DNA of 64,000 bases from Bacteroidota bacterium (GTDB lineage Bacteria; Bacteroidota; Bacteroidia; SXHM01), in the NCBI GenBank assembly GCA_947478465.1, contig CANJWH010000001.1, positions 27,447 through 91,446 of the forward strand, in the 5' to 3' direction. The position numbers were made by a program, and so were the translations under genes. Below are positions 9,262 to 29,671 of the stretch, one piece after another. Below the pieces are notes generated by a model, which worked only from the letters and a program-made list of their open reading frames with translations, did no database searches and was not told the DNA's origin. How positions within the stretch are numbered: the first letter of the stretch is position 1; every line of letters begins with the position of its first letter.

Positions 9262-9545
9262 CTCCACAGCACTCCGTACATATTTTTAGTGCCGTAAACT
9301 TACTATTAGGAATTCTAACGTTAACGCCAGAATACTCCGTACATTTTTTATACTGTGTGAAGAATAGACCATATAGTTACGTACATATATTAAGCTCTGT
9401 GATGTATATATTACGGAACTACGTACATATATACAATCCTAAAACTGTTGTTTCCATTATCGTATTCTAAACGCGCATTACTTCCGTACATATATTTTAA
9501 GCTATAAAGCAACATTCTTAATATTCCGTACATATTTTATATATA
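9262..9545. repeat. Array of at least 6 direct copies (plus 1 inverted copy) of (A/T)CCGTACATAT(A/T)TTT in a 355-bp intergenic region
   Basis: Copies start near 9274, 9337, 9379, 9423, 9484 and 9526 (spacings 63/42/44/61/42 bp, about multiples of 21). An inverted copy lies at 9400-9420. Confidence 0.6.
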
Positions 9546-27013: not shown

Positions 27014-27025
27014 GGTTTATATTTT

Positions 27026-27042
27026 ACCACTAAGGGCACAAG
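27026..27042. repeat. Repeat family A copy
   Basis: ttaccactaagggcacaagaacac, immediately after the lipoprotein stop. Confidence 0.5.
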
Positions 27043-27126
27043 AACACTAAGGTTTTTTACCTCAAAGGCGCTAAGATTTTAAATCCTCTGTGTAACTCTT
27101 TATCTTCTCTGTGCCCTCTGTGTTAA

Positions 27127-27154
27127 AACCCTTCGACTATGCTCAGGGTGACAA
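27127..27154. repeat. Repeat family B copy (ACCCTTCGACTATGCTCAGGGTGACAAT)
   Basis: 27 of 28 identical to 4547-4575. Confidence 0.55.
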
Positions 27155-27159
27155 TCTTC

Positions 27160-27504
27160 TTACTTCCCAATCTTCTCCCAATACTTATCCCGCTCCTCTC
27201 CTACCCTTTTCAGTTCTTTTTTCAGGGCTTCAATTTCTTTAAGCAATTCTTTTTCGCGGGCGGTGGGGCGCACGTGTTCGGGTAATAATTCAAGGTAATA
27301 TTCAAACAGATTTTCGCCCAAAAAATCGCTGAGGGCAAGCAGTACTGAGGGGCGCACATCGCGGGTGCGCAGGTTGCTGTGCAAATAATTCGAACTTTTT
27401 TTCAGCTTCCGGCTTATAGCGTTAAGCGATGTGCCTTTGTATTTTGCCCAGTTGCGGGCTATTGCAGGCATATCTGGCAATTCTTTTTTGGTTTTTAGCG
27501 GCAT
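27160..27504 (-). CDS. Small HTH (XRE-like) DNA-binding protein with C-terminal coiled coil
   Basis: 114 aa. GTSLNAISRKLKKSSNYLHSNLR resembles an XRE-type helix-turn-helix. The ATG sits 11 bp from the first iteron. Confidence 0.5.
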   Translation of the reverse strand: MPLKTKKELPDMPAIARNWAKYKGTSLNAISRKLKKSSNYLHSNLRTRDVRPSVLLALSDFLGENLFEYYLELLPEHVRPTAREKELLKEIEALKKELKRVGEERDKYWEKIGK

Positions 27505-27514
27505 GATTTATAAA

Positions 27515-27672
27515 TTGTAATGAGCGGTAAAGAAATTGTAACGGGCGGTAGCATTTTTGTAACGGACGGTATAAAATTTATAACGGGTGGTATATAAACA
27601 ATAACGCAGGAACGAGAAATTGCAACATGGAGTTGAGATAGTGTAAAGCATGTTCAATCTATTGTAACATTG
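27515..27672. repeat. 21-bp phased direct-repeat (iteron/operator-like) array, consensus TTGTAACGGGCGGTA
   Basis: Good copies at 27515, 27536, 27557 and 27578 (spacing exactly 21 bp). Degenerate copies at 27599, 27620 and 27662. Confidence 0.65.
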
Positions 27673-27676
27673 CCTT

Positions 27677-27714
27677 AAAAAAGCCCTTTGCAACTATGTG
27701 CAAAGGGCTTTTTA
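27677..27714. terminator. Bidirectional intrinsic terminator (perfect 16-bp stem)
   Basis: aaaaaagccctttgca-actatg-tgcaaagggcttttt, A-run and T-run on opposite sides. Located 3' of the 311-aa gene. Confidence 0.7.
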
Positions 27715-27720
27715 GTGTGT

Positions 27721-28656
27721 TTAACCTATGGTAACTTTATAAGTGCCGGGTGTGCCGGTGGGGTTTTGCACCACCAGTTCGTTACCTGCCGGTGCCATAG
27801 CGCCAAAGGTAGTTTCCAGCGGGGTGCCGGGCATTACGTTTACCCATCCGCCTTGTATCATTCCGCTTATGGCTAAAGCAAACTGCAGTTGCGTACCCGA
27901 TACTTCAAATTTAACGGGAGTAGCTGCATTGTAGGTTATTTCGGCTACCTTTTTTTGTGCTCCGGGGTTTACACCTTCTTCATACACATCGCCTCCTCCC
28001 CCGCTTGGGTTATCGTCAATGGCGCGGGCCAGCTGATATTCTTCCCACAGCGCAACGGTGGCGGCATTGTTGCGATAGCTGTTCACATATCCGTCAAGTT
28101 TTTCAAGCAGTTTGCGGCTTTCGGCAATGCCGCGATCAACATCATTGCCGGCAACGGTTTTGGCTTCAATGGCATCTTTAACTTCGGGTATGGCGGTGAA
28201 GTAAGTAATGGTTAGTGCAGGCAGGTCGGCAATATCGCTTGCGGCAACATTATAGCCCGGCAGCGCAGCAAGCACAACGGGTGTAAGGTAGGTGTTAAGG
28301 TACTGAGCCTTTTGCTGCAATTCGGTATCCTGCATTTTTTTAAGGTCGCTTTTGGTATAATTTACCTTGTTTGCAAGTGTGTTGTTATTATTGTCTTCGG
28401 CATAAGAGTGTATACCGTTAGCTACATTATACATAACGGTTTCAAGCGCCTGACGGGTTTGCTGCTTGTCTTCGGCAACACCCGTAGTGTTTTCGGTGGC
28501 GCGGCCTGCGGCTTCAATAATAATTTGGATTTGTGCATCTAAAAGCGCTTTGGTTGGCGCAATTTGCATGTGGCTTGAGTAAGCCGCTGCATTGTCTTCA
28601 AGGTTGTCTTGCACCTTGAGCAGCATGTTTAAAAATGCTTGCTGTGTGTCATTCAT
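27721..28656 (-). CDS. Hypothetical protein (311 aa): helical N-terminal region, Gly linker, beta-rich C-terminal domain; no recognised family
   Basis: Clean ORF with its own terminator. No signal peptide or TM; SGGGGD linker near residue 225. Confidence 0.55.
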   Translation of the reverse strand: MNDTQQAFLNMLLKVQDNLEDNAAAYSSHMQIAPTKALLDAQIQIIIEAAGRATENTTGVAEDKQQTRQALETVMYNVANGIHSYAEDNNNNTLANKVNYTKSDLKKMQDTELQQKAQYLNTYLTPVVLAALPGYNVAASDIADLPALTITYFTAIPEVKDAIEAKTVAGNDVDRGIAESRKLLEKLDGYVNSYRNNAATVALWEEYQLARAIDDNPSGGGGDVYEEGVNPGAQKKVAEITYNAATPVKFEVSGTQLQFALAISGMIQGGWVNVMPGTPLETTFGAMAPAGNELVVQNPTGTPGTYKVTIG

Positions 28657-28674
28657 AAGATGAGGTTTTTGGGG

Positions 28675-29025
28675 TTAGTTTTCTGGTTTGTTTAGTTGAT
28701 TGGTATTAGAAAGTTTAATTTTAATTTCTTCAAGATCAGACAAGACTTGCTTCATAAATTGATCAGAAAAAACAATCCTGGTCTCTGCTACAACATTCAG
28801 CGGGTTTTCGGATTCAAAAACCGTTTTTTTCGAATCTGGAAAATCAATCGAAAAATCATGTCTGATGATGTTACCTATGCGTTCTATCATTTCTTCAGGC
28901 GGGTTGTGGGTTGCAAGCAGGCGGTCAAAAGTCTTTTTATCAATTTTCAACTTCTTGTAAATAAATGCCTTTGACACACCAAATTCTTCTATTCTTTCCC
29001 TGATTATTTTTCCGCGGTGTTCCAT
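28675..29025 (-). CDS. HTH XRE-like transcriptional regulator (116 aa)
   Basis: IRERIEEFGVSKAFIYKKLKIDKKTFDRLL is a helix-turn-helix signature near the N-terminus. Confidence 0.55.
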   Translation of the reverse strand: MEHRGKIIRERIEEFGVSKAFIYKKLKIDKKTFDRLLATHNPPEEMIERIGNIIRHDFSIDFPDSKKTVFESENPLNVVAETRIVFSDQFMKQVLSDLEEIKIKLSNTNQLNKPEN

Positions 29026-29086
29026 TTTCGGAACAAAAATACCGCAGCACCTTAGGCTTTATTGAACACCGGGCAGGCGAAAGTGA

Positions 29087-29131
29087 CCCATTAATGGGGA
29101 GCGTGAGAAGAAAAAATACCCCTTTATGGGG
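29087..29131. promoter_or_regulatory. Two operator-like sites CCCATTAATGGGGA / CCCCTTTATGGGGA 31 bp apart upstream of the HTH gene
   Basis: The first is a perfect 12-bp palindrome (cccattaatggg). Both sit in the 5' region of the minus-strand gene that ends at 29025. Confidence 0.35.
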
Positions 29132-29203
29132 AATTGAGAAAAAGGCCGGTGCTGTTGAGGCAATTAGCGCTACGGCAAAAAAACCGATATTTGCCCACCA
29201 ACA

Positions 29204-29238
29204 TTCGTATATTCGTAATTCATTCGTTATTCGTTGAT
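29204..29238. repeat. Half-element of repeat family C (four ATTCGT hexamers) overlapping the ybeY start
   Basis: attcgt-at-attcgt-aattc-attcgt-t-attcgt-tgat has the same architecture as the right arm of 24055-24146. Confidence 0.45.
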
Positions 29239-29671
29239 GATAAACTTCTTCACCCAAGACATAAAATTTACCCTGAAGAACAAAACAAAAGTTCGTCAGT
29301 GGCTAACCACCGTTGCCAAAAAAGAAGGCGCCCAAATAGCCGAACTCAACTACATTTTTTGCAGTGATAATTACCTGCTGGATCTGAACAAAAAACATTT
29401 GAACCATAACACACTTACCGATATAATTACGTTCGATACGGCTGTCACTTCGAGCGTAGTCGAGAAGCAAATAACCGGAGACATTTTTATAAGCATTGAA
29501 AGAATAACCGAAAACGCAGAAAAATTCAATGTTTCACGTGAGTACGAGCTGCACCGTGTAATGGTACACGGCCTGCTTCACCTCCTCGGCTACAAAGACA
29601 AAAAACCTGCAGATAAAGCCCAGATGACGGGCAAAGAAGATTTTTATTTAAAGAAAGTCCATAGTCGATAG
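29234..29671 (+). CDS. ybeY: rRNA maturation endoribonuclease YbeY
   Basis: 145 aa. HGLLHLLGYKD zinc-binding H-x-H motif. Confidence 0.85.
   Translation: MMINFFTQDIKFTLKNKTKVRQWLTTVAKKEGAQIAELNYIFCSDNYLLDLNKKHLNHNTLTDIITFDTAVTSSVVEKQITGDIFISIERITENAEKFNVSREYELHRVMVHGLLHLLGYKDKKPADKAQMTGKEDFYLKKVHSR

Follow-up and report, generated by a model that had tools for sequence, protein, structure and literature searches.

A phase-locked array of 21-bp repeats in front of a predicted XRE-like gene in a hypervariable island of uncultured Bacteroidia

The DNA directly in front of a 114-aa gene, here called gene A, raises the question of which protein reads a long run of direct repeats locked to a 21-bp period, and what such binding would be for. 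The sequence-only reading of the window, the whole 64-kb stretch of DNA analysed here, had counted four to seven repeats, three of them degenerate, and had proposed either replication-origin iterons or cooperative autoregulation through multiple operators, with the products of two nearby small genes as candidate binders.

The repeat array and its surroundings in the window

The four well-conserved copies previously read at 27515, 27536, 27557 and 27578 were recovered at exactly these positions by a mismatch search and by TRF, the latter reporting a period of 21, 3.7 copies and 0% indels over 27515–27592. These strong units match TTGTAACGGGCGGTA with 2, 0, 1 and 2 mismatches, respectively. At up to three mismatches TTGTAACGGGCGGTA has four matches in the 64 kb, all of which fall within the array (1.16 expected), and none of 100 shuffles gives four. 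No dispersed copy was found outside the array at this threshold, and within the window the motif is thus not the generic intergenic repeat that had been raised as a counter-explanation. Degenerate copies in phase do exist, but there are four of these (27599, 27620, 27641 and 27662) rather than three. The array is counted as eight units (Table 1), and not as four to seven, because the four further in-phase positions keep the TTGTAAC half, with 22 of 28 bases matching at positions fixed by the phase (binomial P = 2e-8). In the orientation of gene A the unit is approximately CGTTACAA-N6-TACCGCC; the four gene-proximal units are strong and the four distal units retain mainly the GTTACAA half. In a lag scan of the entire 64-kb window the array ranks first in periodicity, with a lag-21 identity of 0.59, and the sole other stretch reaching 0.5 is a marginal one near 9304 (0.51, lag 42). 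A search of 20–36 kb against Rfam gave no match.

Table 1. Features of the module and of the island that contains it (positions in the window)
Feature	Position	Strand	Description
Hypervariable island with module	27076–29239		Limits are the breaks in blastn similarity
Gene A, 114 aa	27160–27504	−	ORF; predicted XRE-type HTH and long C-terminal helix
Array	27515–27682	−	Eight 21-bp units in exact phase, 5′ of gene A
Intrinsic-terminator-like hairpin	27678–27713		15-nt perfect arms, 6-nt loop, A/T tails
Gene B, 311 aa	27721–28656	−	Helical bundle and β-sandwich
Gene C, 116 aa	28675–29025	−	Small, fast-evolving, HTH-like; upstream of gene B

Gene A lies on the minus strand, with the array directly upstream of it. 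The distance between the array and the A of the start codon (27504) is 11 bp, as had been noted from the sequence, and the array fills the entire gap between this codon and the hairpin. The hairpin, which had been described as a terminator with a 16-bp stem, is indeed perfect, but its arms (27678–27692 and 27699–27713) are 15 nt long, not 16; they include the A5/T5 tails, and the last repeat unit overlaps the A-tract. Beyond it, on the same strand as gene A, genes C and B form a two-gene operon, which this putative terminator would end, at the same time insulating the array from upstream transcription. The chromosomal genes around the module are those for an aldehyde dehydrogenase, lepA, a lipoprotein, ybeY and mnmG, and in several genomes the module is found on the chromosome between lepA and ybeY/mnmG.

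No significant match to Pfam, NCBIfam, PHROGs or PADLOC was obtained for A, B or C. The confident model of B (pLDDT 89.7) consists of a long helical bundle (residues 1–212), a Gly linker and a C-terminal β-sandwich (residues 223–310), and has no NTPase fold and no recognizable toxin or enzyme fold. A comparison of C with A as a possible paralogue gave an hhalign probability of 9%, which is not significant.

Arrays and modules in related loci

Relatives of A and B were gathered from a genome collection, protein-indexed assemblies and metagenomes. For 23 loci, the window and 22 others (about 21 of them non-redundant), the DNA in front of the A homologue could be read. All 23 have a 21-bp array immediately 5′ of this gene, whatever the gene order, and the array is the sole strong period-21 (or 42) stretch of each locus; a few loci carry unrelated 7- or 8-bp-period stretches elsewhere. 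In the 20 loci with an intact A the arrays comprise 7–11 units and end 0–62 bp before the ATG, with only 0–15 bp between array and ATG in many of them. In nearly all related loci a terminator-type hairpin immediately precedes the array. A homologue of B was found in every related locus for which neighbouring genes are covered, except L020, L023 and the decayed L024. Two loci, L009 and L010, have the gene order array-A-B and no C gene, and the array is still located before A. Consequently, the array belongs to A and not to B or C, and A is the only DNA-binding candidate that always accompanies it. The 116-aa protein C, one of the two binders originally suggested, is therefore unlikely in this role.

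Two arrays depart from the usual length or regularity. L009 carries eleven near-identical units, AACCGAGTTAACGTTTGGGTT (L009:3199–3430), with 88% mean pairwise identity and GTTAAC twice per unit, which suggests that this array was recently amplified or homogenized; the array-A-B segment adjoins a type IIG restriction-modification gene. L024 carries about 29 units of the 21-bp repeat with a GTTCGCTTAAGGAAC core and partly 42/63/84-bp super-periods (L024:2365–2960), followed by a 52-aa ORF (L024:3025–3183) in which nothing of A remains but its C-terminal coiled-coil portion. This locus is decayed or an orphan, with no HTH domain in the truncated A and no B gene upstream.

Between the window and its close relatives, similarity at the DNA level is interrupted from about 27075 to about 29240. 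In comparisons of the window with L001, L002, L003, L007, L008 and L014, the flanking proteins MnmG and LepA are 94–98% identical and the flanking genes 87–91% identical as DNA, whereas identities within the module are 44–84% for A, 35–87% for B and 25–70% for C, and the array gives no blastn alignment in any comparison with the window. The identities of the three proteins are uncoupled from one another (A 78% and B 51% in L003; A 56%, B 35% and C 70% in L007). The module also occurs in other contexts (L009, L010 and L011), and its flanks vary between the close relatives L002, L003, L004, L008, L009 and L011. These flanks are rich in genes for HigB/HigA, ParE, PIN, AbiEii, Fic and HEPN/nucleotidyltransferase proteins, with TonB_C in several, and restriction-modification genes are also among the neighbours of the module in related genomes. 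Judged by this gene content, the neighbourhood is of accessory- or defence-island character, and the locus looks like a recombining, fast-diversifying, mosaic accessory locus.

The geometry of the arrays is constant between loci, with a period that is always 21, essentially no indels and a single orientation relative to A, and the unit sequences differ. The unit is TACCGCCCGTTACAA in the window, TTTCTCTACCC in L001, TTTCTCAC... in L002, L003 and L005, GTTAACGTTTGGGTTAACCGA in L009, TGTATATACA... in L015, CCTGTG-N6-CACAGG in L017 and GTTCGCTTAAGGAAC in L024. Circular alignment of the 20 unit matrices identified an ATTTcT-like T-tract as the only common element, its score of 7.8 bits, against 5.9 ± 0.2 for column-shuffled controls, being inflated by related loci. 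Internal dyad symmetry of the units reaches p ≤ 0.05 in five of the 20 loci, where about one is expected, and fits the binding of one dimer per unit. The unit of the window is not among these five (p 0.13–0.15) and significant symmetry is likewise absent in most loci; dyad symmetry as a universal property of the units was rejected. A coding repeat, which a period of seven codons or a protein heptad might suggest, was also rejected, as no frame is open through the array in 12 of the 20 loci.

Protein A and its proposed self-control through the array

The AlphaFold2 model of A, built from an alignment of 18 sequences, is of medium confidence (pLDDT 77.5) and contains helices at residues 12–22, 27–33, 40–44, 52–62 and 66–71, with a long C-terminal helix at residues 82–113. 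It is reasonable to regard the modelled protein as an XRE-type five-helix HTH (about residues 12–71) followed by a long helix, and the latter, which resembles bZIP and coiled-coil sequences, probably mediates dimerization or oligomerization. The leading Foldseek matches are all XRE-family HTH proteins (ClgR, SinR, HigA, HipB and lambda-type) and are weak, with E values of at least 0.36. Only noise was found for A in Pfam at E ≤ 1. A profile of A retrieved only 97 clusters in an hmmsearch of 1.84 billion representatives, and these proteins, barring fragments and two outliers, are about 110–140 aa long. The weakest of the profile relatives, P0146 and P0150, match Pfam HTH_3/HTH_26, and two A homologues carry weak precomputed HTH_3 assignments. 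The assignment of the 114-aa gene to the HTH proteins is thus favoured by the predicted fold and by remote, marginal profile links, but obtains no match in the family libraries. In the literature, analogues are known, and no description of the A family was found.

The similarity of the units between loci was compared with the identity of different parts of A. It correlates with identity at residues 24–50, which span helix 2-turn-helix 3 (Mantel rho 0.22, p 0.02), and not with identity over the remainder of A (rho 0.05, p 0.31), a covariation that is modest, partly confounded by phylogeny and not phylogeny-corrected. Within a protein that is otherwise strongly conserved, the HTH segment is also the less constant part, with a mean identity of 40% as against 50% elsewhere. 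Such covariation of units with the HTH would be expected of a protein A that reads the units, and provides modest evidence that it does so. The comparison of the window with L002 cuts both ways: the arrays fail to align although the A and B genes are 82 and 86% identical as DNA, and the A proteins are 84% identical, yet the conserved unit cores differ. With A so nearly identical and the cores different, few substitutions would have to shift the specificity, which counts against binding by A; residues 36–48 (SSNYLHSNLRTRD versus NPQYLHQNLHSRD) would be candidates for such a shift.

The explanation preferred here, with a probability of roughly 0.55, is that A binds to its array and in this way regulates its own expression. 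Of the two functions originally proposed, cooperative autoregulation through multiple operators fits the data, whereas a replication origin lacks support. The array would act as the operator and promoter region of gene A, with eight sites, one per 21 bp; spaced at two helical turns, all of these sites would face the same side of the helix. The protein bound there would be the product of the adjacent gene, A, acting as dimers, which would load first on the strong gene-proximal units and then spread cooperatively over the weaker distal ones. The resulting nucleoprotein filament would cover the A promoter and bring about switch-like autorepression. The A protein and array of each strain would then be a private, co-diverging pair inside the hypervariable island.

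The promoter of gene A is expected within the array or at its edge, because a terminator lies upstream and almost no DNA remains before the ATG. The Bacteroidetes −7 motif (TAnnTTTG) has no consistent occurrence in or after the arrays, and GTTACA-N17-TACAAT pairs of sigma-70-like type, which arise between adjacent units, are no commoner than chance. In the window, such pairs are formed by adjacent GTTACAAT cores on the minus strand (27514–27563) and arise from the 21-bp period; they are not of the Bacteroidetes promoter type, and the proximal pair would start transcription a few bases before the ATG.

Several known regulators share parts of the proposed arrangement. One experimental precedent is KfrA of plasmid RA3, an HTH/coiled-coil autoregulator with a repetitive operator that follows a terminator and overlaps the promoter (PMC7783346); its overall plan is that proposed for A. 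The C protein of phage P2, a 99-aa XRE/lambda-like dimer, binds direct repeats spaced 22 bp centre-to-centre over a promoter, with one dimer on each non-palindromic repeat and cooperativity between them, and several heteroimmune classes exist among close relatives (PMC2995052). In common with P2 C, the locus described here has direct repeats two helical turns apart and a small XRE-type protein. It differs in having 7–11 or more repeats instead of two, no phage genes where P2 C has a lysis-lysogeny role, and an additional long C-terminal helix in A. SinR has the same size and plan as A, an N-terminal XRE HTH followed by a C-terminal helical oligomerization segment, and is among the best fold and sequence matches of A, although not significantly (E about 0.4). 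BldC illustrates that small HTH proteins can polymerize head-to-tail on variable numbers of direct repeats (PMC5859096), but is MerR-like and uses contiguous 9-bp repeats. Long private arrays that are phase-locked and adjoin the regulator's own gene are found with neither SinR nor BldC.

Control of the C-B operon by A was considered and rejected. In 10 loci the region upstream of C contained no match to the unit of the same locus, and matrices of the own unit score no better there than those of other loci. With no own-type unit upstream of C-B or elsewhere in the window, the pair of A and array looks self-contained, and 8–29 sites at the sole target detected near the locus, its own promoter, seem excessive for simple repression.

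What is new at this locus is a phased, repetitive candidate operator array private to an unannotated XRE-like/coiled-coil family, within a hypervariable three-gene module of uncultured Bacteroidia. If A coats the array, the locus is a compact natural case of a regulator and its long, private, phase-locked sites co-diverging within one genus. It would also be a tractable system for the joint evolution of HTH specificity and operator arrays, since about 20 natural pairs of protein and array are available. The unannotated hypervariable island beside ybeY/mnmG in uncultured Bacteroidia may represent a new maintenance or conflict module. If A is merely an elaborate autoregulator, a useful annotation is still gained, namely a new XRE-like family that can be recognized by the signature upstream of its genes.

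Alternative readings and neighbouring repeats

A more ambitious form of the proposal, offered tentatively and at odds well below even, is that A and its array make up a strain-specific, self-contained filament that is the core of an unrecognized hypervariable chromosomal module of A, B and usually C, and has a job beyond self-repression. The undescribed family of small XRE-like/coiled-coil proteins would in this case polymerize on 150–600 bp of private phase-locked sites, for example as a conflict or defence switch or as a KfrA-like scaffold, with diversification driven by avoidance of cross-talk. The self-contained appearance of the pair keeps readings of both kinds alive.

It is unlikely that the array is first of all a structural scaffold or centromere-like site, similar to KfrA/O_K, ParR/parC or TubR/tubC, with autoregulation as a by-product. 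Such a scaffold would recruit partners, for example the helical protein B, for the positioning, maintenance or silencing of the island. The layout is reminiscent of the IncU plasmid RA3, where KfrA, a protein of 355 aa with a very long tail that interacts with ParA/ParB-type proteins, acts on O_K, five contiguous 9-bp repeats of which two are inverted; full repression requires several of these repeats, and no copy of the motif is found elsewhere on the replicon (PMC7783346). Both loci have a gene for a helical partner (kfrC in RA3), a Rho-independent terminator (putative here) and repeats in front of a monocistronic gene for an HTH/coiled-coil protein, predicted in the case of A. Embedding of the promoter in the repeats and autoregulation, known for KfrA, are proposed for A, as is oligomerization through its putative coiled coil. 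The repeat is, moreover, unique to its site here, with no other target of the unit nearby, B belongs to the module at almost all loci, and the 7–11 sites (about 29 in L024) exceed the needs of repression. In the type II parC/ParR and type III tubC/TubR systems, the protein coats a repeat array as a helical filament and represses the promoter (PMC5016525). These arrays lie upstream of the binder's own operon, as the tandem arrays do before A in 23 of 23 loci. The differences are substantial, however. A has 114 aa, and its eight (7–29) units are 21 bp apart and chromosomal, with no partition genes; ParR is a ribbon-helix-helix and TubR a winged-helix protein, both plasmid-borne and adjacent to a ParM or TubZ motor. 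Neither the module of the window nor any related locus contains a ParA, ParM or TubZ motor, the fold of B is not that of an NTPase, and A has no match to KfrA_N, or to any other Pfam family, that would place it in the KfrA_N family. The locus also has no plasmid or phage relatives. Finally, A and B vary in identity independently of each other from locus to locus, as would not be expected of two proteins with a tight interface.

A toxin-antitoxin- or defence-like module is judged distinctly unlikely. A would here be an antitoxin-type repressor, with B bridging neighbouring A dimers and adjusting the occupancy of the array by conditional cooperativity, and the hypervariability would reflect diversification driven by conflict. 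In keeping with this, the island is hypervariable between near-identical flanks, related genomes have HigBA, ParE, PIN, AbiEii, Fic, HEPN/NTase and restriction-modification neighbours, the array-A-B order of L009/L010 resembles an antitoxin-toxin operon, and the predicted fold of A resembles the antitoxins HigA, HipB and GraA. Against it, A, B and C match nothing in PADLOC, Pfam or NCBIfam, and B is devoid of a recognizable toxin fold. In loci of the window type B would be cotranscribed with C rather than with A, the terminator separating B from the array, and the divergence of B does not follow that of A.

There is, at best, a slim chance that the array has no partner in A, and is either a minisatellite produced by slippage or a site for another factor, for instance a nucleoid protein drawn by phased T-tracts, or C. 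Copy number is certainly dynamic, as the eleven near-identical units of L009 and the approximately 29 units beside the truncated A of L024 illustrate, and the ATTTcT-like T-tract, all that the units share across the family, could give intrinsic curvature. Yet period, position, orientation and a count of 7–11 units are kept across about 20 independent loci, and this constant geometry despite complete turnover of the unit is incompatible with a neutral satellite. A coding role is likewise excluded and there is no Rfam match. C is absent in L009/L010 where arrays are present, and the similarity of the units tracks the HTH segment of A, which argues against a factor other than A.

Iterons of plasmids such as P1, F, pSC101 and R6K are direct repeats of about 17–22 bp, spaced at about two turns beside the gene for their binding protein, and can also autoregulate that adjacent gene. 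They need a winged-helix Rep initiator, an extrachromosomal replicon and an AT-rich element for unwinding, and DnaA boxes are usual. That the array consists of replication-origin iterons, or determines the incompatibility of an integrated plasmid or phage, is very improbable: the eight repeats at exactly 21 bp fall within the iteron range of length and helical phase, lie beside an AT-rich region and the gene for a small putative DNA-binding protein, and diverge quickly in specificity as incompatibility groups do, but the iteron requirements were not found here, A being by its model a 114-aa XRE-like HTH and no Rep-type protein, no DnaA box (≤1 mismatch) occurring in 22.8–31.1 kb, the GC skew showing no switch, no integrase or tRNA lying nearby, and the same chromosomal position (lepA to ybeY/mnmG) recurring in several genomes. 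The earlier statement that no Rep or integrase gene is visible agrees with this, as neither was found near the locus, nor a partition NTPase in the module. Relatives of A and B were found in none of 72,556 plasmids or 50,697 phages searched by tblastn, nor in 2.9 million viral contigs covered by profile scans.

Other repeats occur at both edges of the island. Just downstream of gene A there is a 19-nt inverted repeat (27022–27040 and 27110–27128), and short CACTAAGG/CTTAGTG-type repeats are found over 27022–27128. Similar motifs are present in intergenic DNA of a related genome (L001:4283–4317 and 9441–9465), and these repeats, together with the inverted repeat, may be a REP-like dispersed element. 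At the other edge, two copies of an 11-bp-period repeat, ATTCGTAATTC, lie immediately 5′ of the start codon of ybeY (29211–29232). The ybeY gene beside the island is itself unusually divergent (59–82%), and in some relatives its homologue contains a heptanucleotide microsatellite, GATGTCG/GGTGTCG, of approximately 20 or more copies (L005:270–440 and L003:1–257, opposite strand), by which the predicted protein grows from about 145 aa to 200 aa.
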